Notes: a model not told the origin generated them from the letters alone. A stretch of 35,330 nucleotides of DNA from an uncultured Candidatus Saccharibacteria bacterium (GCA_964362645.1 CAYIFC010000002.1:1-35330); one strand, 5' to 3'; counted from the stretch's first letter, positions 1 to 30,103 are shown. Numbers and translations are program-made.

Positions 1-508
1 TCGCGCCCGGGGTGATTTCCCAAATTTCCGCCAACCCTTGTTCTTCGGAAGCGCAAATAATGTGGGCGTCCGAGAGGCACATGGCCCGCACGCGCTGGAG
101 ACCCATCAATTCGCCGGATTGCTCGTAGCGATAAAGTTTAGCAAACTCAGCAATTCGCATCGGCAGATCACGGTAACTGTGGGGTTGCGAGAGATAGAGT
201 TGAAAGTGGTGAGGGCAGGTCATTGGCCGGAGCATAAACTCCTCGTCGTCGATGACAATCGGCGCGTACATTTTGTCTTTATAGTGGGGGTAGTGGCCGG
301 ACTTTTTATAGAGCTCGAGACGGGCGATATCGGGTGTTTCGACATGAAGGTAGCCGCGCTTGATCTCTTCGTTAATTATGAACTGCTCAAGCAAGCGCTT
401 AACCGTAGCGCCCTTAGGTAGAAACATCGGCAAACCCTTGCCGACCGTTGGGTCAATATAAAACAACCCCAACTCCGGCCCTAGCTTCTTATGATCCCTT
501 TCTTCCAT
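1..508 (-). CDS. thrS: Threonyl-tRNA synthetase, N-terminal part of the gene (continues past window start)
   Basis: Reverse-strand translation from ATG (508-506) gives MEERDHKKLGPELGLFYIDPTVGKGLPMFLPKGATVKRLLEQFI...MLRPMTCPHHFQLY...SYRDLPMRIAEFAKLYRYEQSGELMGLQRVRAMCLSDAHIIC, which is the class II ThrRS catalytic core. An in-frame TAA lies at 562-560 with no ATG/GTG/TTG between it and the ATG. It is absent from the ORF track because it runs off the window. Confidence 0.85.
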   Translation of the reverse strand, partial: MEERDHKKLGPELGLFYIDPTVGKGLPMFLPKGATVKRLLEQFIINEEIKRGYLHVETPDIARLELYKKSGHYPHYKDKMYAPIVIDDEEFMLRPMTCPHHFQLYLSQPHSYRDLPMRIAEFAKLYRYEQSGELMGLQRVRAMCLSDAHIICASEEQGLAEIWEITPGA

Positions 509-549
509 GATGGGTTTAATAATAGCAGAAAACCCTGAACCGCTCGGTA

Positions 550-577
550 TTGACGATTTTTAATAGGTGTGATAAGT
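550..577 (+). promoter_or_regulatory. Putative sigma70-type promoter of zinc-ribbon gene 1 (TTGACG-16 nt-ATAAGT)
   Basis: TTGACG at 550-555, a 16-nt spacer, and ATAAGT at 572-577, about 48 nt upstream of GTG 626. The position matches the promoters of the two paralogs. Confidence 0.4.
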
Positions 578-625
578 TGAAAGTTGGAAGTATGATAACT
601 TTGGTCCTTGCGAAAGGGGATAATC

Positions 626-988
626 GTGGATTCGGAAACGAAAGAAATGCTTAGACTCTGGTGGGTTGAATGTTGGAAGCCGGTTTTAAGGGAGCATCGA
701 TTGTCCATCAGCTTTTTTGGGGTCCTACATTTTTGCGGCAGCCTCTGTCTTCTATTATTTGGGCCTTGGCAAATTGGTAACGGTTTGATTATGTGGGCGT
801 CTTGCTACCTAGTTTGCACGATTATTATGCTGCCGATTTTTAGACTCGTCTTTAGAGATTACTGCAAACAAAAGACAGGGCATTCAATTTTTTGCCCAAA
901 TTGCGAGTATGATCTCTACGGTCTCACCGAACCTCGTTGCCCTGAATGTGGCACTGCATTCGAACTCCGCTCTACGTCATCAGCGTAG
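626..988 (+). CDS. Small membrane protein with C-terminal zinc ribbon (paralog 1 of 3)
   Basis: The ORF track gives 608-988. I moved the start to the in-frame GTG 626 because the paralogs start directly after the same leader (cgaaaggggataat). Two hydrophobic helices (ISFFGVLHFCGSLCLLLFGPW, LIMWASCYLVCTIIMLPIFRLVF) are followed by CPNCEYDLYGLTEPRCPECGTAF. Confidence 0.7.
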   Translation: MDSETKEMLRLWWVECWKPVLREHRLSISFFGVLHFCGSLCLLLFGPWQIGNGLIMWASCYLVCTIIMLPIFRLVFRDYCKQKTGHSIFCPNCEYDLYGLTEPRCPECGTAFELRSTSSA

Positions 989-999
989 AGCGGTTTTTT
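967..999 (+). terminator. Intrinsic terminator overlapping the end of zinc-ribbon gene 1
   Basis: Stem ccgctctacg (967-976) pairs with cgtagagcgg (984-993), followed by TTTTTT (994-999). The TAG stop (986-988) lies inside the 3' arm. Confidence 0.75.
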
Positions 1000-1007
1000 A
1001 TTTATTT

Positions 1008-1039
1008 ATATTCCAACATTCTTGAGAATGTGAGAATAT
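1008..1039. repeat. Conserved hairpin element, copy 1 (28-nt core attccaacattcttgagaatgtgagaat at 1010-1037)
   Basis: The core is identical at 2464-2491 and, reverse-complemented, at 29896-29923. It folds as two 6-bp stems (atattc/gaatat, acattc/gaatgt) around a 2x2 internal loop with a ttga loop. Confidence 0.65.
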
Positions 1040-1094
1040 TCTTTTCTCTAATTCGCTCGAATAGGCGAATAGAATTTAGTGAGGGTTGGGCGAA

Positions 1095-1127
1095 ATAAAA
1101 AAGCGTCTCGATGTCACATCGGGACGC
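1095..1127 (-). terminator. Intrinsic terminator of the 169-aa gene (minus strand)
   Basis: An 11-bp stem gcgtctcgatg/catcgggacgc (1103-1127) is followed on the minus strand by a T-run (plus-strand A-run 1095-1102). It sits 20 nt after the stop at 1147. Confidence 0.75.
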
Positions 1128-1146
1128 AGTTGGGTGTGCCAGGTTG

Positions 1147-1656
1147 TTATCCCCAAGTTGGCTTTCGGCTCCAGGGTTTCTTTTCGCCGGTGCCGATTTG
1201 CAGATAATCTTCCATTGGTACATCATTGCAGCGATCATCGCACCAGGGGATCATGCCAACCTGCTGGATCCTTGATCGGATCTCGATGACTCTTAGAAAG
1301 ACGGAGTCAAGAGTGCTAACCATCCACGGTGAGTTTAAGATTATTTGAGTCTGAAAGGGTACAAACCTCTTGCCACTACTCTCTAGGAAAGTTTTTAATT
1401 TGCCGGTTTGGTTCCAGTGGGCAACAACGAACCCGGCATAACCCTTCCTTCGATTCTGAATCACCTTAAAACGGTGTTCGCGTCCGGCGATAGCGCGCCA
1501 AACTGCAAGCCAAAACTCCCAGGGCGCGTTTGGTTCCGTGGTAACCAAACTTTTTACGTTAGCAATTACACCCTCAATATTAAGATTAAATTGGAGATGT
1601 GCGCTATGGTACAAAATTCCCTGATTGGGTGTCGTTGACGCCTTTGCCTTAGTCAT
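1147..1656 (-). CDS. Hypothetical 169-aa protein, paralog A1 (no family recognised)
   Basis: It is a paralog of 2574-3071. Shared blocks are GILYHS, IEGVI-NV, PWEFWL, AG-EHR-K-IQ, YAGF, WNQ and PWCDDRC-DVPME-YL-IG-GEK. GGAG lies 7 nt upstream, and the ATG overlaps the stop of 1649-1867 (ATGACTAA). Confidence 0.75.
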   Translation of the reverse strand: MTKAKASTTPNQGILYHSAHLQFNLNIEGVIANVKSLVTTEPNAPWEFWLAVWRAIAGREHRFKVIQNRRKGYAGFVVAHWNQTGKLKTFLESSGKRFVPFQTQIILNSPWMVSTLDSVFLRVIEIRSRIQQVGMIPWCDDRCNDVPMEDYLQIGTGEKKPWSRKPTWG

Positions 1657-1867
1657 GGCGGGTCTCCATTTGCTCAGTGGGACGGATTTCCGGATGGATG
1701 ACCAGTGGCAAAAAAGTTTGCCCGTCTGGTTTGGGTAGTGACATGATCAGGTCGATCAGGGCTTGAGGCACAGAGATCCAAAATTCTGCTGTGCCCGGGA
1801 AAGGAGCCATTGTCCTATTGCAGGATGCCTTAGCCGGCGAAACACGAACGGGTACCATCTTTTCCAT
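1649..1867 (-). CDS. Hypothetical 72-aa protein, translationally coupled to A1
   Basis: AGGAG lies 7 nt upstream of the ATG, and there is an 8-nt overlap with the downstream gene start. No domain was recognised, and no counterpart exists upstream of paralog A2. Confidence 0.5.
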   Translation of the reverse strand: MEKMVPVRVSPAKASCNRTMAPFPGTAEFWISVPQALIDLIMSLPKPDGQTFLPLVIHPEIRPTEQMETRHD

Positions 1868-1911
1868 TTCTAAACTCCTAAAAGAACAAAATTTATCAAG
1901 TATCCTTAATC

Positions 1912-1939
1912 ACCATAGCAGTTTCTGGTCTAAAATCAA
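1912..1939 (-). promoter_or_regulatory. Putative promoter of the 72-aa/169-aa operon (TTGATT-16 nt-TATGGT on minus strand)
   Basis: On the minus strand, -35 is at 1939-1934 and -10 at 1917-1912. The homologous arrangement (TTGCTT-16-TAAGGT with shared aaactgc before the -10) lies upstream of paralog A2 at 3117-3144. Confidence 0.45.
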
Positions 1940-1943
1940 GAAG

Positions 1944-1973
1944 TTGACGCCGCTTGAGCTGGGCGTGTAAACT
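1944..1973 (+). promoter_or_regulatory. Putative promoter TTGACG-18 nt-TAAACT, back-to-back with the minus-strand promoter
   Basis: TTGACG is at 1944-1949 and TAAACT at 1968-1973. The -35 boxes of the two divergent promoters are 4 nt apart, and the ATG at 1981 is 7 nt after the -10. Confidence 0.45.
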
Positions 1974-1980
1974 AGCAGTA

Positions 1981-2079
1981 ATGGTAAAGAAAACTATTGA
2001 AGAAAGAATGAAGAGAATCAGTGATCTCGAAGACAAAGTTAGTCAACTCGCTGTTAAAGTCGGCCTTCGGTTTAACTAG
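1981..2079 (+). CDS. Possible leaderless 32-aa micro-ORF (MVKKTIEERMKRISDLEDKVSQLAVKVGLRFN)
   Basis: The ATG lies 7 nt downstream of a TAAACT -10 box and there is no SD. The peptide is amphipathic and coiled-coil-like, and it is followed by an 11-bp AT-rich hairpin at 2096-2121. It is below the ORF-track size cutoff. Confidence 0.25.
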   Translation: MVKKTIEERMKRISDLEDKVSQLAVKVGLRFN

Positions 2080-2146
2080 TAATTTGTCATTTCTTCTTAT
2101 TCAATTATTCAATTGAATAAGGGAATAAGGTGGAGGGGTGGGGGAG

Positions 2147-2174
2147 TTGCTATTTTCATAAAAAGTGGTAGGGT
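2147..2174 (+). promoter_or_regulatory. Putative promoter of zinc-ribbon gene 2 (TTGCTA-16 nt-TGgTAGGGT)
   Basis: TTGCTA is at 2147-2152 and the extended -10 tgg-TAGGGT at 2169-2174. It is nearly identical to 3799-3826 (shared ttttcat-aaaagtggtagggtg). Confidence 0.5.
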
Positions 2175-2221
2175 GAAATTAGGAAGTTTTGTAACCTTGT
2201 CCTTCGCGAAAGGGGATAATT

Positions 2222-2443
2222 ATGAGTGACCAGTTTATTCGATTAGTGATGGCTCTCGGTCTTATTACTGTGGCTGTGGCGTGGTTCCATATGCTGTGGG
2301 AAGGTTTTAGGTCGGATTATATTATCGCAGAACGACGGTATAGGGGACTTTGTTTAAAGTGCGGTTATAGTCTCCACGGTCTCATTGAACCACGTTGCCC
2401 CGAATGCGGCACCGCATTTGAACCCCGCCCTGCTTCACCGTAG
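2222..2443 (+). CDS. Small membrane protein with C-terminal zinc ribbon (paralog 2 of 3)
   Basis: 73 aa. One TM helix (LVMALGLITVAVAWFHML) and a basic juxtamembrane segment are followed by CLKCGYSLHGLIEPRCPECGTAF. The SD gaaagggga precedes the ATG. Confidence 0.75.
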   Translation: MSDQFIRLVMALGLITVAVAWFHMLWEGFRSDYIIAERRYRGLCLKCGYSLHGLIEPRCPECGTAFEPRPASP

Positions 2444-2453
2444 GGCGGTTTTT
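2425..2453 (+). terminator. Intrinsic terminator overlapping the end of zinc-ribbon gene 2
   Basis: Stem ccgccct (2425-2431) pairs with agggcgg (2442-2448), followed by TTTTT. The TAG stop (2441-2443) sits at the base of the 3' arm. Confidence 0.7.
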
Positions 2454-2463
2454 CATTACAAAC

Positions 2464-2491
2464 ATTCCAACATTCTTGAGAATGTGAGAAT
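2464..2491. repeat. Conserved hairpin element, copy 2
   Basis: The same 28-nt core attccaacattcttgagaatgtgagaat as at 1010-1037, in the same position between the two convergent terminators. Confidence 0.65.
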
Positions 2492-2516
2492 AACAATTTG
2501 ATGTTTGTGTTAGGTG

Positions 2517-2549
2517 AAATAAAAAAGCGACCCGGGGTGAGTGGGTCGC
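2517..2549 (-). terminator. Intrinsic terminator of the 165-aa gene (minus strand)
   Basis: Stem gcgaccc/gggtcgc (2527-2549) is followed on the minus strand by a T-run. The flanks (gaaataaaaaagcg...cgcag-tgggtg) are conserved with 1095-1135 although the stem sequence differs. Confidence 0.7.
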
Positions 2550-2573
2550 AGGTGGGTGGTTGAATCTATGTCG

Positions 2574-3071
2574 TTACCAGTTTGTTTTCGAGCTCCATGA
2601 TCGCTTTTCGCCTTTGCCGATTGCCAAATAACTTTCCATCGGCACATCGGTGCAACGATCGTCACACCATGGGGCAAGGCCGATATTAGGGATTCCTTGT
2701 CTAAGTTCAGAAACAATAAACAAGGCGGAACTAAGAGTATTAGTCATCTTTGGACTTTGGGGGATTACTGCTTGCTTGGCAAGTGCGACAAATTGCTCAT
2801 CACTGCCCCCAAGAAAACCGTCGAGTTTTTTGTCCTGATTCCAGCAACCGATAATAAATCCGGCATAACTCCTTCCTTCTTTCTGAATGATTTTATATCG
2901 GTGTTCTGATCCCGCGATTGTATCAAAAATTGTAAGCCAAAATTCCCAAGGCTGAATACTTTTTGGAACGAGATTTATCACATTTATTATTACTCCCTCA
3001 ATTGCCTTGTTAAACCATGTTTGGTTACTATGATACAAAATTCCCCAATTCGGCGTATCTTTTTTAGCCAT
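2574..3071 (-). CDS. Hypothetical 165-aa protein, paralog A2 (no family recognised)
   Basis: It is a paralog of 1147-1656 (see that entry). AGGAGG lies 6 nt upstream of the ATG. Confidence 0.75.
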   Translation of the reverse strand: MAKKDTPNWGILYHSNQTWFNKAIEGVIINVINLVPKSIQPWEFWLTIFDTIAGSEHRYKIIQKEGRSYAGFIIGCWNQDKKLDGFLGGSDEQFVALAKQAVIPQSPKMTNTLSSALFIVSELRQGIPNIGLAPWCDDRCTDVPMESYLAIGKGEKRSWSSKTNW

Positions 3072-3116
3072 AAGACTCCTCCTCTCAAAATTAAAAAGAA
3101 CTTCATTACTACTCCC

Positions 3117-3144
3117 ACCTTAGCAGTTTTGCTCCCAAAAGCAA
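3117..3144 (-). promoter_or_regulatory. Putative promoter of paralog A2 (TTGCTT-16 nt-TAAGGT on minus strand)
   Basis: On the minus strand, -35 is at 3144-3139 and -10 at 3122-3117. It is homologous to 1912-1939, including the leader segment gttctttt...aggag. Confidence 0.45.
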
Positions 3145-3191
3145 CCACCCTTGAGATTTTATAAGTTTACGGTTATTCTTTACTAAATTTT

Positions 3192-3680
3192 ATGGATGAA
3201 AAGAAAAACTACGCCTTTATTGACGCGCAAAATCTTCATCTGGGGTCAAAAGATGCGGGTTTAGATATTAATTATCGGAAATTAAGAGTGTATTTAAAGG
3301 ATAAATATAATGTTGATCGAGCCTACCTTTTTATGGGTTATATGCCCCAATATGCTGACATTTATTCTGAACGTTAGGAGCAGGGTTATATCGTTAAATT
3401 CAAACCAGTCTTGATCGCTCATGGTGAGCAAAAGCAGAAAGGTGATATCGATGCCCACTTAGCCTTCTGCGTAATGCTTTACTATCGCGAATACGAAAAA
3501 GCAGTTTTAGTTACTAGTGATGGAGATTTCGATATAGTCGTAAAGTATTTAAATAAGAAAAATAAACTGGCGGCAGTGTTTAGTCCTAATAGAGATAAAT
3601 GTTCGTCTTTATTAAAAATTGCCGCCGGAGGCAAGATGCAATATTTGCAGGATGTAGGAGGAAAAATATTGAAAATATAG
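3192..3680 (+). pseudogene. NYN (LabA-like, PIN-fold) nuclease-domain gene interrupted by one in-frame TAG
   Basis: ORFs 3192-3377 and 3411-3680 share one frame, split only by TAG 3375-3377: NYAFIDAQNLHLG...YADIYSER*EQGYIVKFKP...KGDIDAHLA...VLVTSDGDFDIVVKYL. The conserved acidic motifs are intact on both sides. Confidence 0.7.
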
Positions 3681-3700
3681 ATAACTAGATAAAATAAAAA

Positions 3701-3738
3701 GGCACCGCCAGAGGACGAAACCTCAAGCAGTGCCTTTT
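3701..3738 (+). terminator. Probable intrinsic terminator after the NYN gene
   Basis: An imperfect long hairpin ggcac-c-gc..gagg-acgaaa-cctc..gc-a-gtgcc (3701-3734) is followed by TTTT. Confidence 0.5.
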
Positions 3739-3798
3739 CCTAGTGAACAACCATATATTATCAAACCTATTATGTATGTCAAATCAACGGGCAAAAAT

Positions 3799-3826
3799 TT
3801 GCAGTTTTCATGAAAAGTGGTAGGGT
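3799..3826 (+). promoter_or_regulatory. Putative promoter of zinc-ribbon gene 3 (TTGCAG-16 nt-TGgTAGGGT)
   Basis: TTGCAG is at 3799-3804 and TAGGGT at 3821-3826, preceded by TGg. It is homologous to 2147-2174. Confidence 0.5.
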
Positions 3827-3863
3827 GGGGGAAGGCATTACGGTTTTTCGAAAGGAGGATTAG

Positions 3864-4085
3864 GTGGATATTTTAAAGATAACGACGATAATGTTGGTAG
3901 TGTCATTGCTTGCTCTTTTTGTTGCTTGTTGGGTTTGGTTTTTCGTGAGACGCATTTGTGCAAAGGAAGATTTTCGTTGGAGAAATGGATATTGTATTAA
4001 TTGTGGTTATGATGTCCACTTTCTCACTGAGCCACGTTGTCCAGAATGTGGAACAGTTTTTAATCACCGCCCTATTTCACAGTAG
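3864..4085 (+). CDS. Small membrane protein with C-terminal zinc ribbon (paralog 3 of 3)
   Basis: 73 aa with a GTG start after the SD aaaggagga. One TM helix (IMLVVSLLALFVACWVWFFV) is followed by RR and then CINCGYDVHFLTEPRCPECGTVF. Confidence 0.75.
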   Translation: MDILKITTIMLVVSLLALFVACWVWFFVRRICAKEDFRWRNGYCINCGYDVHFLTEPRCPECGTVFNHRPISQ

Positions 4086-4097
4086 GGCGGTTTTTTT
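4067..4097 (+). terminator. Intrinsic terminator overlapping the end of zinc-ribbon gene 3 and abutting the fmt stop
   Basis: Stem ccgcccta (4067-4074) pairs with tagggcgg (4083-4090), followed by T7 (4091-4097). The TAG stop (4083-4085) is in the 3' arm, and the T-run overlaps the convergent fmt stop codon. Confidence 0.75.
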
Positions 4098-4833
4098 ATT
4101 GTCTCAACCCTCTCAAGAACGCTTGGTACTTCATTTCCTTGCGGCCTTCGGGTTTGACGCGGTCAATTGTAAAAACATTGTTATTAAGGTGAGCAGAGGT
4201 AATTAGAACGCGCAATGGTTTGCCTAAATGCTCGGCGAAATAATAAATGCCGGGGTTAGGAGTGAAAGCTAAGAATTTACGATAATTCAAATTAGCGTCA
4301 TCTTCTAATTTAATTTCCCCATCTTCTTTTTTAACTTTCTTGGTAAAAGTGGCGACGGTGTGATCTTGCTCCAGAGCTTTTATTTCGCCTTTGACCCACT
4401 TGGGCAAAATTTCAGCCAACATATCAGACCCTATTGTTGCGAGCTGATCTCGCAATTGGACGAAATTGGTATTAGGGTCGAGTGCGATTTTCTGTTGAGC
4501 TAAGATTGGCCCGTGGTCGACTTGTTCATCAATTAACATAATCGAGACCCCGGTTTCTTTGTCGCTATTTAAGATTGTGGTTTGGAGAGGTGAAGCGCCG
4601 CGGTGTTTGGGCAGGAGCGAAGGGTGGACATTGATCGTGCCGAACTTGGGCTTATCTAAAACTTCTTTTTTTAAAATCTTGCCGTAACTCGCCACAACAT
4701 ACATGTCAGCATTTTTTGGGATGTCGCTTGTCGTTGTATTTATAACCTGTTTGGGCACCAACCCGTGTTTAGCGAGCCCTTTAAGCACGCCATCAGCAAA
4801 CTCATCCAAGCCGAAGAAAACAAAATCAAGCAT
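4096..4833 (-). CDS. fmt: Methionyl-tRNA formyltransferase
   Basis: Motifs include HPSLLPKHRGASPLQTTILNSDKETGVSIMLIDEQVDHGPIL. I chose the start at ATG 4833 (MLDFVFFG), which overlaps the def stop as ATGCTTGA. The longer ORF to 4914 would overlap def by 89 nt. Confidence 0.85.
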   Translation of the reverse strand: MLDFVFFGLDEFADGVLKGLAKHGLVPKQVINTTTSDIPKNADMYVVASYGKILKKEVLDKPKFGTINVHPSLLPKHRGASPLQTTILNSDKETGVSIMLIDEQVDHGPILAQQKIALDPNTNFVQLRDQLATIGSDMLAEILPKWVKGEIKALEQDHTVATFTKKVKKEDGEIKLEDDANLNYRKFLAFTPNPGIYYFAEHLGKPLRVLITSAHLNNNVFTIDRVKPEGRKEMKYQAFLRGLRQ

Positions 4834-5356
4834 TGTGTTTGTGGTCGTGATCATCAACGACCTCATGTAAACCTTTGGCCGTATCAATAAACAAAATCCC
4901 TTTGAGGTGATCAATCTCGTGCTGGAAGATCTGGGCCATTAAGCCCGAAGCGTGGCGGACAAACTTTCTGCCAGTTTCGTCATAGGCTTCCACGCTCACG
5001 CGCTCGTGCCGTTTCGTTGTGCCGTAGATCCCGCGCACGCTCAAGCAACCTTCGACCATTTCTCTTTTAGATCGAGAATTGCGGGTGATCACTGGATTAA
5101 TAAAAACTAGTTCATTCTTTGGCGCTTTTATATCCAAATTCTCTTCCTCAAAAGCTTTCGGCGACACCACAAAAATTTGCCACGACCCGCCGATTTGCGG
5201 CGCGGCTAAAGCCACTCCATCGTGCGCACTGGCTAAAACCTTCTTCATTTTCGCCACCAACTTTACAAAAGTGGGCGCAGTAATGTCGGCCAAGGGCACT
5301 GCCTTAGCCAATTGCCGCAAAACCTCGCTTCCTTCTTGGATAATTACCTCTTTCAT
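4826..5356 (-). CDS. def: Peptide deformylase
   Basis: The motifs GVALAAPQIG, EGCLS and QHEIDHLKG are present. Confidence 0.92.
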   Translation of the reverse strand: MKEVIIQEGSEVLRQLAKAVPLADITAPTFVKLVAKMKKVLASAHDGVALAAPQIGGSWQIFVVSPKAFEEENLDIKAPKNELVFINPVITRNSRSKREMVEGCLSVRGIYGTTKRHERVSVEAYDETGRKFVRHASGLMAQIFQHEIDHLKGILFIDTAKGLHEVVDDHDHKHNA

Positions 5357-5363
5357 TGCTTAA

Positions 5364-7262
5364 TCAGAGCACATCAGCGGGGTCGACATCAACAGTCACC
5401 TCATCCGCGCGGCCTAGGTGTTTTAGGAGAGTGACGAGCGACTCCTCCGGCCACTCTTCGGGTTTACGCCGGATCAGAATGTTGCCGCGATAATTTTCGT
5501 TACCAGAGAGGTGGCGACTGGGGTAGGCATCGGGCTCATAATCTTTAAACTTGTCGGCTAGATGTTTAACTTTAGGCAAGACGTCTTGTTTGCGACCAGT
5601 AACCGAAATTTTTATTAAAATGGTAAACGGCGGGTAGCCAAAAGTTTTACGCTCGGCGATTTCTTGCCGGTAAAAGTCGAGGACTTGCCCTTTGAGACCA
5701 AGGTCGAAGAGGCCGTGCTCGGGATGCCGCGTTTGGAGCACGAGCCGCTTACTCGCCATGCCTCGGAGTCGCGAAAGGAGGCCGAAGACTCGCTCGTTAG
5801 TGCGGAAGTCGGGGAGAGCGAGCATTGAGTCAATTGCGGCGATGGCCACATTTTCTACTCGCTCCTTCAAATAATAGAGAGCCATTTCGGTGCCAATGAT
5901 GACGCCGCCGGATGAGGCCATAAACTTTCGAACAATCCCTTCGGCTTGTTTGCTGGTCTTAACGCTGTCGCTGTCGAGCTGGGCGAGAGGGAGATCGGGG
6001 AAGGCGGTGCTGATTGCTTTGGCCACTTGATCGATACCCGTACCTAACTCCGTTAAACGCCAACTCTCGCAGTTACGGCACATTTCGTCGGATTGCCGCT
6101 CGTCGCCACAGTGATGGCACAGAAAGATCTGTTGTTGATGGAGCACTACAGGTGCGGCACAACGCCGACAGCGCACGAGTTGGCCGCAATCCTGGCAGAC
6201 GATAATCGGTGAGAGGCCACGGCGGTGGCTGAAGATAAAAACTTTCTCGCTTTGCTTGCGGGCATAGTCGATGAGAGCCAGTAGGTCATGACTCACACCG
6301 CCACTTAACTCCTTGTTTTTGGCCAGATCAATTAAGTGGTAGTCAGCACCCGAGGCAATGTGGTGCTTGAGTGGCGAGAGTTGGAGGAGGTCGCCGCGCT
6401 GGGTTCGGTACACCGTTTCGGCTCGGAGCACAGTGTCGCCAAAAATTAATTTGGCACCTAAAGTCTCCGCCAAAAATTCGGTAAACTTGCGGGCGTCCAC
6501 AAATGGTCGCGTTAAACTTTTGTAAGCAGGAGAACTCTCTTGGTCGACGATTAAGGCCCGCCAGTCGTGGCGGGGGAGCGAGAGGAAGAGGGGTGTGGCA
6601 ATAACAAGAATTGGATGCTCCATTTCCACCGCGTGTTGCCACTCACTCTTTAACTTGCTGGCCGATAGGCGATGATGGAGGACGACGGTATAATTAGCAA
6701 TCCCTTTGGAAATAATTTCGGCCGTGCGTTCCACGTCGGTTACCGTTGGCACACAGAAGAAGACGGAGTGACCGCGGGCAAACTCTTCGCGAATCAAACT
6801 TTTGTAATGAATGTGGCGCTCGGCGTCTGATTCCTGGAGAACTAGTTTATCGATCTTGACTTTCTTTTCGTCTCGGCCAGCAACCGGGCTTGGGGGTGGT
6901 GGCGACACAATTTTCGATTTTGGATCAGGCTCATTAATGATCGGTTGGGGCACAAAGTGTTTGATGGTTGGTCCCAATTCGGCGGCAAAATAGTCGGCCG
7001 CTCGGTGAGCAGCGGCCAGAAAGGGGGGTAAGAAGAATTGTTTGGCTTTAACTTGACTGACTTTCCGCAGGGGGTAGTTGGCAGTTTTTACCGCCATCTT
7101 AACGTTATCAACAACCGTCACTTTCGTAACCAACGCATCGATCTGACGGTTTTTAACCGGCACAACAACCAGAGCGCCCGGGACCACCTCGGCGGCGGTA
7201 AAGTAGGTTAACTCCGCTCCGAGTGGTGCTCGGGTGAGAGGCACCACGCTAACCACTTTCAT
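5364..7262 (-). CDS. priA: Primosomal protein N' (PriA)-like protein with degenerate ATPase motifs
   Basis: 632 aa and collinear with PriA. It has the N-terminal DNA-binding region, two RecA-like lobes, and the Cys-rich insertion CQDCGQLVRCRRCAAPVVLHQQQIFLCHHCGDERQSDEMCRNCES (four CxxC pairs). The Walker A, DExH and motif VI positions are substituted (see findings). Confidence 0.8.
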   Translation of the reverse strand: MKVVSVVPLTRAPLGAELTYFTAAEVVPGALVVVPVKNRQIDALVTKVTVVDNVKMAVKTANYPLRKVSQVKAKQFFLPPFLAAAHRAADYFAAELGPTIKHFVPQPIINEPDPKSKIVSPPPPSPVAGRDEKKVKIDKLVLQESDAERHIHYKSLIREEFARGHSVFFCVPTVTDVERTAEIISKGIANYTVVLHHRLSASKLKSEWQHAVEMEHPILVIATPLFLSLPRHDWRALIVDQESSPAYKSLTRPFVDARKFTEFLAETLGAKLIFGDTVLRAETVYRTQRGDLLQLSPLKHHIASGADYHLIDLAKNKELSGGVSHDLLALIDYARKQSEKVFIFSHRRGLSPIIVCQDCGQLVRCRRCAAPVVLHQQQIFLCHHCGDERQSDEMCRNCESWRLTELGTGIDQVAKAISTAFPDLPLAQLDSDSVKTSKQAEGIVRKFMASSGGVIIGTEMALYYLKERVENVAIAAIDSMLALPDFRTNERVFGLLSRLRGMASKRLVLQTRHPEHGLFDLGLKGQVLDFYRQEIAERKTFGYPPFTILIKISVTGRKQDVLPKVKHLADKFKDYEPDAYPSRHLSGNENYRGNILIRRKPEEWPEESLVTLLKHLGRADEVTVDVDPADVL

Positions 7263-29891: not shown

Positions 29892-29927
29892 AAACATTCT
29901 CACATTCTCAAGAATGTTGGAATGTTT
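29892..29927. repeat. Conserved hairpin element, copy 3 (inverted orientation)
   Basis: The reverse complement of the 28-nt core lies at 29896-29923. Here the outer stem is extended (aaacattc/gaatgttt), and on the plus strand it is followed by a T-run. Confidence 0.65.
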
Positions 29928-29995: not shown

Positions 29996-30044
29996 ATCTA
30001 CCTTCACTATAAACACATAGGTAATGTGGATAAGTAGGGTAGGC

Positions 30045-30097
30045 AAGTGGGAGAAAGTGGTTTAAAATTAGGGGGTAGTGGGTTAAAGTGGTAAACT
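30045..30097 (+). promoter_or_regulatory. Four phased MraZ-box-like direct repeats overlapping an extended -10 promoter (TGgTAAACT) of mraZ
   Basis: The boxes are AAGTGGG (30045-30051), AAGTGGT (30055-30061), TAGTGGG (30076-30082) and AAGTGGT (30086-30092), with starts spaced 10, 21 and 10 nt. TAAACT is at 30092-30097, 6 nt before ATG 30104. Confidence 0.6.
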
Positions 30098-30103
30098 AGA
30101 AAA

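Follow-up and report, generated by a model that had tools for sequence, protein, structure and literature searches.

What are the three small genes that lie between thrS and fmt in an uncultured groundwater bacterium, and how did they come to be there? They occupy positions 550-4097 of a 35,330-nucleotide (nt) stretch of Candidatus Saccharibacteria DNA (CAYIFC010000002.1:1-35330; the whole of it is referred to here as the window), which derives from 0.1-µm filtrates of the Hainich groundwater well H43. All three are on the plus strand, are paralogous and encode short membrane proteins that end in a putative zinc ribbon. We propose that they are paralogues specific to this lineage and belong to a large, uncurated membrane-protein family, whose hallmark would be a juxtamembrane, cytoplasmic ribbon with four cysteines (C4). 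The whole of this explanation, comprising family identity, history and the docking mechanism discussed below, has in our judgement a little less than an even chance of being right; its parts differ in strength.

Three paralogous ribbon proteins

A sequence-only reading of the window had described three paralogous genes whose products begin with hydrophobic helices, continue through basic residues and end in a zinc ribbon, and our analysis bears out both the paralogy and the architecture. The open reading frames (ORFs) are located where that reading placed them (Table 1), and their products match one another with BLASTP E values of 9e-18 (copies 2 and 3) and 6e-14 (copies 1 and 2). Copy 1 had been missed by the gene callers in all three public assemblies that cover the ORF; we set its start by the homology of its Shine-Dalgarno site and leader with those of copy 2. 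The public callers gave copy 3 a shorter, 64-amino-acid (aa) start. No further copy of the ribbon motif occurs in the rest of the 35-kb window.

The tail common to the three proteins reads C-x2-C-(G/E)-Y-(D/S)-(L/V)-(H/Y)-(G/F)-L-(T/I)-EPRCPECGT-(A/V)-F, with 11 residues separating the two knuckles of the ribbon. When the three copies are aligned with a Phycisphaerales protein (P0002, see below), 16 columns of the four-sequence alignment are invariant, including C-x2-C, Y, L, EPRCPECGT, F and R. At the DNA level, all nine codons of the invariant EPRCPECGT differ synonymously at the third base among the copies, and the 28-codon tail gives a ratio of nonsynonymous to synonymous rates (dN/dS) of 0.13-0.38 at a dS of 0.7-2.0 (Nei-Gojobori). 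By this measure the ribbon tail is under purifying selection acting at the protein level. The helix region is saturated, the proportions of synonymous and nonsynonymous differences (pS and pN) being 0.81 and 0.62; the pS of the tail (0.46-0.70) lies below that value. The tail ratios and the saturated helix region therefore point to old duplicates that have retained the ribbon and, of the helix, its hydrophobic character alone. A strain variant (L002, 98.9% identical) shows zero differences in copies 1 and 2 and so is uninformative on selection.

Kyte-Doolittle hydropathy (19-residue windows) places two hydrophobic segments in copy 1 (peaks of 2.0 and 2.2) and a single one each in copies 2 and 3 (2.0 and 2.65), so that in every copy the ribbon adjoins a hydrophobic helix (peaks 2.0-2.65) through a basic linker. 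The 15 residues before the first cysteine carry a net charge of +2 to +3 in all copies, close to the family median of +2 for this linker. With 61 family sequences as input, AlphaFold2 models copy 2 as a single helix (residues 2-41) followed by the zinc knuckles, at a predicted local distance difference test score (pLDDT) of 87.5. The ribbon has a net charge of -1 to -4 in the window copies (family mean -0.4), and all three proteins end R-(P/S)-x-(S/T)-x-x, a segment that is coded within the terminator stem. The four invariant cysteines and the positive-inside rule suggest that the ribbon binds zinc and faces the cytoplasm. We are confident of the identity and overall architecture: membrane helix or helices, basic linker, C4 zinc ribbon.

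Relatives of the ribbon

No curated family in Pfam or NCBIfam claims the ribbon proteins, all matches being sub-threshold. Pfam DZR_2 (PF18912) scores 23.5, 19.8 and 22.1 bits with copies 1, 2 and 3, below its gathering cut-off of 27, and the matches are confined to profile positions 13-49 of 56; across the family, weak matches (E<=0.001) occur in 29 of 61 members and always fall at positions ~13-49, which correspond to the second ribbon. DZR_2 describes a two-ribbon protein with four CxxC pairs, whereas each window protein has two pairs. The window proteins do share with DZR_2, DZR, Zn_ribbon_3 and Zn_Ribbon_1 the two CxxC knuckles that form a C4 ribbon; they differ from DZR_2 in being single-ribbon and membrane-anchored and in having family-specific conserved non-cysteine residues. 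The rubredoxin/rubrerythrin-like NCBIfam family NF033497 shows weak similarity (E 2.5e-4 to 0.026, below the curated cut-off). FYDLN_acid (PF09538 / TIGR02300) has a comparable (F)YDL motif between the knuckles, with similar spacing, and matches copy 1 non-significantly (E=0.3), but FYDLN proteins are soluble, have an acidic tail and no membrane helix; they are likewise uncharacterised. Foldseek found nothing for the ribbon model at E<=0.001. Sequence matches in the PDB proved to be an unrelated C2H2 half-motif, KCPECGKSF.

The closest analogy in layout is to LapB (YciM), which likewise joins an N-terminal membrane anchor to a rubredoxin-like zinc site of four cysteines at its cytoplasmic C terminus. 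This arrangement operates in LapB as a membrane-bound adaptor of Gram-negative bacteria. The weak matches, none of them significant, fall on this part of LapB (E 0.13 and 0.59 in NCBIfam; E 7-10 for 4zlh and 7t6d in Foldseek). LapB is a protein of ~390 aa with tetratricopeptide repeats, of which the window proteins have none, and it is tied to the synthesis of lipopolysaccharide, which a monoderm-like organism of the Candidate Phyla Radiation (CPR) would lack. We draw from LapB an analogy of layout only, with no claim to membership.

Relatives were found elsewhere, almost all of them in one phylum. A single-sequence search with the ribbon gene returned itself and one 74-aa protein from a Phycisphaerales metagenome-assembled genome (C4547_07575, our P0002). 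A profile of the tail searched against 5.8 billion sequences returned 212 proteins, all of 40-83 aa, the named ones coming from Phycisphaerales or Planctomycetes; the E values of copies 2 and 3 in this search are 7e-20 and 1.6e-22. Scanning 185,579 species-representative genomes for EPRCPECG gave at least 599 stretches, at least 485 of them confirmed as relatives. We analysed the loci of the best 80, and almost all belong to Phycisphaerae or other Planctomycetota, in agreement with the sequence-only reading, which had linked CxxCGY..L..CPECG tails to Planctomycetota-like genomes.

Layout and sequence are both recognisable across these relatives. The order helix, basic linker, ribbon is found in 82 of the 118 profile-search relatives examined (P0005-P0122), and 28 others have an N-terminal ribbon, in several cases with a C-terminal helix after it. 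Likewise, in the best 80 loci the ribbon is placed either behind the last membrane helix and an Arg-rich stretch or ahead of the first helix. It has these positions in many membrane proteins that vary in size and are otherwise unrelated; the long members contain no other known domain, with the exception of one with Yip1. Between phyla the ribbon is 64-80% identical over ~26 aa, with nearly every residue kept. Paralogues are clustered in several loci (seven within 8.7 kb in L055, three in L024, three in L064, two in tandem in L091). As judged from these sequences, the hallmark of the family is C-x2-C-G-Y-x-L-x-G-L-x-E-P-R-C-P-E-C-G-T-x-F, and the family is abundant in Planctomycetota, especially Phycisphaerae, where tandem paralogue clusters are common. 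The window proteins carry this motif with few departures: copy 1 has E for G before the Y, and copy 3 has V and F for L and G.

The "hypothetical proteins" of Planctomycetota (P0002, P0022, P0037, P0041, P0049, for instance) thus have the same ribbon motif and layout as the window proteins, a similar size, and tandem paralogues. They differ in their host, which in the window has a GC content of 0.48 (against ~0.63) and is probably of CPR type, and in that the window copies have their R-(P/S)-x-(S/T)-x-x ending inside a terminator stem. We know of no characterised member of the Planctomycetota family. Among 2.9 million viral contigs there is one relative of the ribbon, and collections of phages and plasmids (including PLSDB plasmids) contain none.

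Transcription signals

Each ribbon gene is accompanied by its own candidate promoter, Shine-Dalgarno site and terminator (Table 1). The promoter-like TTGC(T/A)(A/G)TTTTCAT(A/G)AAAAGTGGTAGGGTG is 90% identical between copies 2 and 3 over 29 nt (3799-3827 in copy 3). The candidate of copy 1 is positionally homologous to that of copy 2 and lies within a 69-nt upstream repeat (D3, 556-624 versus 2152-2220) that is 72% identical between the two copies; the counterpart of TAGGGT here is TAAGTT. The leader TCCTT(C)GCGAAAGGGGATAAT, near-identical in these two copies, is separated from the start codon by 1-2 nt. These non-coding repeats are much better conserved than the synonymous sites in between, and they have therefore been either constrained or homogenised.

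At the 3' end, a GC-rich hairpin on the coding strand followed immediately by a T run, as expected of an intrinsic terminator, is predicted for all three genes. Each hairpin holds the last six to seven codons and the TAG stop, and the T run of copy 3 overlaps the fmt stop codon (4096-4098, minus strand). In copy 1 the stem has T-A where copies 2 and 3 have C-G, a compensatory change. The leaders, in contrast, show no significant RNA fold (z-scores of 0.2, 0.3 and -0.6 for copies 1, 2 and 3, the first being 0.22 before rounding), and Rfam has no match in the region at either the gathering or the E<=5 threshold. We rejected a riboswitch or a Shine-Dalgarno-sequestering hairpin on these grounds. 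The sequence-only reading had called each copy a complete promoter-leader-gene-terminator unit, which is a fair computational description of the promoter-like, Shine-Dalgarno and terminator signals, but the leader is not a structured element. As a candidate extended -10 promoter, a Shine-Dalgarno site and a predicted terminator go with every copy, the three genes are probably transcribed independently.

The promoter word AAGTGGTANNNT is found at three sites in the window, namely copy 2, copy 3 and the mraZ promoter, where 0.18 would be expected. Upstream of mraZ (30020-30103), AGTGG boxes recur about every 10 nt (30046, 30056, 30077, 30087) and resemble a MraZ operator. The last box sits in AAGTGGTAAACT, and the word AAGTGGTA at this site also makes up the promoter candidates of copies 2 and 3. 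The distance of 6 nt between the end of the -10-like hexamer and the ATG suggests that the mraZ mRNA is leaderless. In a related contig, L085, the same promoter word, AAAAGTGGTAGGAT, stands before a gene for a 158-aa secreted protein (954-1490, minus strand of that locus) that has no counterpart in the window; the long ORF there is not in the frame of the ATG that lies 6 nt downstream of the -10, suggesting a 1-nt assembly error or a frameshift.

Table 1. Features of the thrS-fmt region and the third copy of the 32-nt element. Positions are those of the window; z, folding z-score.
Feature	Position	Strand	Remarks
Copy 1 promoter candidate	550-578	+	TTGACG, 17-nt spacer, TAAGTT (573-578); read from sequence
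Copy 1 leader and Shine-Dalgarno site	605-624	+	TCCTTGCGAAAGGGGATAAT; 1 nt before GTG; matches copy 2 leader except for one C
Zinc-ribbon mini-protein copy 1	626-988	+	GTG start, 120 aa, two hydrophobic helices, putative ribbon at residues 90-113
Copy 1 intrinsic terminator (predicted)	967-999 (hairpin 967-993)	+	11-bp stem including TAG stop, then TTTTTT; -20 kcal/mol, z=-6.2
32-nt near-palindrome, first copy	1010-1038	+	ATTCCAACATTCTTGAGAATGTGAGAATA; just after copy 1 terminator
169-aa orphan protein	1147-1656	-	convergent with copy 1; paralogue of 165-aa gene
72-aa ORF	1649-1867	-	overlaps start of 169-aa gene; module 1 only; gene status uncertain
Copy 2 promoter candidate	2147-2174	+	TTGCTA, 16-nt spacer, TGG-TAGGGT (extended -10)
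Copy 2 leader and Shine-Dalgarno site	2199-2219	+	one C more than copy 1 leader
Zinc-ribbon mini-protein copy 2	2222-2443	+	ATG start, 73 aa, one helix, putative ribbon at residues 44-67
Copy 2 intrinsic terminator (predicted)	2425-2453 (hairpin 2425-2448)	+	includes TAG stop; z=-4.8
32-nt near-palindrome, second copy	2464-2492	+	repeat D2; just after copy 2 terminator
165-aa orphan protein	2574-3071	-	convergent with copy 2
NYN-domain (LabA-like) gene	3192-3680	+	in-frame TAG 3375-3377; Pfam NYN matches in both halves
Bidirectional terminator hairpin	3697-3738	.	z=-5.7 (+ strand), -6.1 (- strand)
Copy 3 promoter candidate	3799-3826	+	TTGCAG, 16-nt spacer, TGG-TAGGGT
Copy 3 leader and Shine-Dalgarno site	3842-3861	+	GGTTTTTCGAAAGGAGGATT
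Zinc-ribbon mini-protein copy 3	3864-4085	+	GTG start, 73 aa
Copy 3 intrinsic terminator (predicted)	4066-4098 (hairpin 4066-4091)	+	z=-7.2
32-nt near-palindrome, third copy	29893-29927	-	

Host, synteny and neighbouring genes

The compact gene order of the window, its GC content of 0.48, a threonyl-tRNA synthetase that starts at the catalytic core and a 32-nt element common to aquifer contigs indicate that the host is probably a low-GC groundwater bacterium of the CPR/Patescibacteria type. The synthetase gene (2-508, minus strand) begins MEERDHKKLG, the start of the catalytic core, seemingly without the N-terminal TGS and editing domains, and it runs past the window at its C-terminal end only. 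No ribbon was found in 690 kb of contigs that carry the 32-nt element; the ribbon genes are therefore unusual for such genomes, and horizontal acquisition is plausible. The sequence-only reading had further described surroundings that are AT-richer than their flanks and free of housekeeping functions. This description holds, the GC content of the island being 0.42 against 0.485 for the rest of the window (the median of the Planctomycetota loci is 0.63) and its content varying between relatives.

The variation is seen in L085, which comes from a related organism and has in common with the window the 3' end of fmt (DNA ~70% identical), the NYN gene (76%), intact there, and a gene for a 163-aa homologue of the 165-aa protein. 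It has no ribbon gene between the NYN terminator and fmt, where copy 3 is located in the window. The hairpin that follows the NYN gene (3697-3750) includes 54 nt identical to L085 (305-338), while the flanking coding DNA is 76% identical; it probably serves as a terminator for fmt too. In L085 this bidirectional terminator is ~90 nt from the fmt stop, and in the window the copy 3 unit intervenes between the two, which favours an insertion in the window. A hammerhead-like GAGGACGAAAC in this terminator was considered and rejected, as it has no Rfam match and folds as a plain bidirectional terminator. Three contigs of the related organism, each from a different assembly (L085, L086 and L087), break off at an identical base, 63 nt beyond the stop codon of the gene for the 163-aa protein; a copy of the 32-nt element occupies the matching point in the window, suggesting a repeat or a strain-variable junction.

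The gene noticed earlier as a dead nuclease is an NYN-domain gene (PF01936, cut-off 24.2 bits; the C-terminal half scores 28.4 and the N-terminal half 16.5). Its in-frame TAG is also present in an independent assembly, L001, and the intact orthologue in L085 (353-895) has a Gln codon at this position. By this comparison the gene is inactivated by a single nonsense codon.

The 165-aa and 169-aa proteins are 53% identical (dN/dS ~0.2, dS ~2), and a full HMMER search of 1.84 billion representative proteins found only seven homologues of this family. The AlphaFold2 model of the 165-aa protein (pLDDT 82, predicted template modelling score 0.80) has no Foldseek match at E<=0.001 in the PDB or BFVD. 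Neither of the two proteins matches any family in Pfam, NCBIfam, PADLOC or PHROGs, nor does the 72-aa ORF. The 165-aa gene had been suggested as a partner of the ribbon genes, and this we do not find: homologues of the 165-aa protein elsewhere have no ribbon gene nearby, and ribbon genes elsewhere (the 80 loci and the Phycisphaerales locus L004) have no neighbour of the 165-aa type. A 159-aa gene that is convergent with the ribbon gene in L004 was tried as a relative of the 165-aa gene and rejected (BLASTP E=0.35). Since the two families do not co-occur elsewhere, the pairing is local, a module duplicated in this lineage and not a conserved two-gene system.

Within 1944-2129, a promoter-like site (TTGACG, 18-nt spacer, TAAACT) has its end 7 nt upstream of the ATG of a 32-aa ORF (1981-2079) in which charged residues are abundant. 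The ORF is uncalled in the public assemblies and is followed by an AT-rich palindrome of 18+18 nt (2096-2129). This ORF may be a leaderless micro-gene.

The 32-nt element

The stretch that copies 1 and 2 share downstream is a 32-nt repeated element, ATTCCAACATTCTTGAGAATGTGAGAAT. We had considered this stretch as a relic of the fmt 3' end, but the alignment is no better than those of shuffled sequences (209/2000 and 1036/2000). Three exact copies of a 25-nt core of the element are present in the window, where chance would give 0. Exact matches of this core in metagenome contigs number at least 118 and come from many sites (loci L094-L211; aquifer and digester), often two to three per contig and 307-355 nt apart. 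The conserved core, ACATTCCAACATTCTTGAGAATGTGAGAATGT, contains four ACATTC/GAATGT hexamers and one further covarying flank pair.

Elsewhere a gene for an ArsR-family protein of 90-95 aa (Pfam HTH_5, 2e-8) often follows the element directly, and a TTGAGA inside the element there stands 17 nt from a TAnnnT box. The element recurs downstream of the ArsR-family gene, before diverse genes (NUDIX, GNAT, macro domain, GIY-YIG). To judge from these positions, it looks like the operator of a widespread regulon, or a conserved operator/promoter module. The window encodes no ArsR-family regulator of this kind, and its copies of the element have no well-placed -10. A second palindromic element, ATTCGNNCGAATAGGCGAAT, lies at 1051-1070 in module 1, ~13 nt after the first element, and recurs beside the 32-nt element in unrelated metagenome contigs (L099, L108, L118, L180). 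We found no literature on the 14-nt palindrome or on a CPECG-type ribbon.

Discussion

We suggest that a minimal form of the family, one or two helices and a ribbon, was probably acquired horizontally by the CPR-type host and then multiplied by segmental duplication. An old module, in which a ribbon gene is convergent with a gene of the 165-aa type, would have been duplicated to give the two present in the window, and a solo unit, copy 3, would have been placed between fmt and the terminator that adjoins fmt in the related contig. The DNA-level homology of promoter, leader, tail and terminator among the copies supports duplication in place, as does the dS of ~2 between the 165-aa and 169-aa paralogues. 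In the protein, the helix would insert with its N terminus out and C terminus in (both termini in for the two-helix copy 1), holding the ribbon ~15 residues from the inner face of the membrane. There the ribbon might serve for protein docking, recruiting or sequestering a conserved partner in the cytoplasm or at the membrane periphery, and the helix would need only to be hydrophobic. The ribbon is neutral to acidic and almost every residue of it is conserved across phyla, which therefore favours protein docking over nucleic-acid binding or metal sensing; the degree of conservation (64-80% over ~26 aa) suggests one conserved binding partner. As a specific function, membrane-tethered docking is nevertheless a tentative proposal, about which we are more doubtful than hopeful.

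Several observations weigh against this explanation. The conservation of EPRCPECG among the genomic matches is partly produced by the search pattern itself. No family of neighbours recurs when the genes around the 80 loci are clustered. The ribbon proteins have no significant sequence or structural match to any characterised protein (Pfam, NCBIfam, PDB, Foldseek). Finally, the missing copy 3 in L085 could reflect a deletion there and not an insertion in the window.

The idea with which this locus was first presented, that of a conflict or defence island or contingency locus, now seems to us unlikely. It would make the ribbon proteins membrane effectors or sensors of an anti-phage or toxin-immunity system, acting with the 165-aa protein and the NYN nuclease. 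Small membrane proteins are indeed common as abortive-infection effectors, the island is variable, lower in GC and devoid of housekeeping functions, it holds a NYN-family nuclease gene, and paralogues with hypervariable helices and conserved ends would suit such a role. However, the ribbon proteins, the 165-aa and 169-aa proteins and the 72-aa ORF have no match in PADLOC-DB 2.0 or PHROGs, the PADLOC signal being limited to a weak match of the NYN fragment (E=0.017), and the NYN gene is inactivated although the ribbon genes are still under purifying selection. The genes are convergent or form separate units and do not make up an operon, the ribbon and 165-aa families are not found together elsewhere, and the near-absence of the ribbon from viral, phage and plasmid sequences, together with the lack of a recurrent neighbour, points the same way. 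A membrane-tethered regulator of the ToxR or anti-sigma kind, one that would tether a sigma factor, a transcription factor, DNA or RNA to the membrane, is in our view slightly less improbable. Zinc ribbons often bind nucleic acids or RNA polymerase, and the weak Foldseek and PDB neighbours of our ribbon are those of RNA polymerase and the ribosome, but all structural matches have E>1 and the ribbon is neutral to acidic. Planctomycetota carry many extracytoplasmic function (ECF) sigma factors, and those family members in which an N-terminal ribbon precedes the helices resemble anti-sigma factors in layout; yet the HxxxCxxC motif of zinc anti-sigma factors is absent from the ribbon alignment, window positions 1-6500 contain no sigma-factor gene, so that the island has none, and no such gene or any other recurs beside the 80 loci.

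The invariance of the four cysteines and the weak rubredoxin/rubrerythrin similarity noted above would also fit a protein in which the cysteines sense or buffer zinc or oxidants at the membrane and do not maintain a fixed fold. All of the family matches are below curated cut-offs, though, and the non-cysteine residues (GY, L, GL, EPR, PE, GT, F) are as conserved as the cysteines, which indicates a specific interaction surface rather than metal chemistry alone; we consider a metal- or redox-responsive role very unlikely. Least credible of all is that the genes are decaying duplicates or chance ORFs in a repeated DNA element conserved at the DNA or RNA level. The conservation of the non-coding promoter, leader and terminator, the failure of gene finders to call copy 1 and a tail pS below that of the helix region could be read in this manner, but such a reading does not account for the low dN/dS of the tail and the synonymous changes in all nine invariant codons, for three intact reading frames without an Rfam match, or for hundreds of protein-level relatives in distant, high-GC genomes.

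Returning to the docking proposal, one may go further and imagine that the EPRCPECG ribbon is an unrecognised, widely conserved docking signal close to the membrane, read by a single conserved machine of the cell such as a membrane protease, an insertase or the translation apparatus. The minimal form would in that case have passed from a planctomycete neighbour or host into a CPR-type symbiont, which would have multiplied it as self-contained units to engage, titrate or mimic that machine. We offer this as a long shot.

Taken alone, the finding is a modest addition; the idea of a defence island, which gave the locus its appeal, is unsupported. It does define a compact and very strongly conserved zinc-ribbon module that is named in no curated database, that is found hundreds of times in Planctomycetota and that occurs here in an ultra-small bacterium that is probably unrelated to them. 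Copy 1, which the gene callers missed altogether, illustrates how poorly small membrane proteins are annotated. For regulation in CPR-type bacteria, the 32-nt element associated with ArsR-family regulators may be of similar interest. For the ribbon family, the 73-aa form provides a clean minimal version with which to test what the module binds, and the locus is probably an instance of a reduced genome capturing a gene from another phylum.

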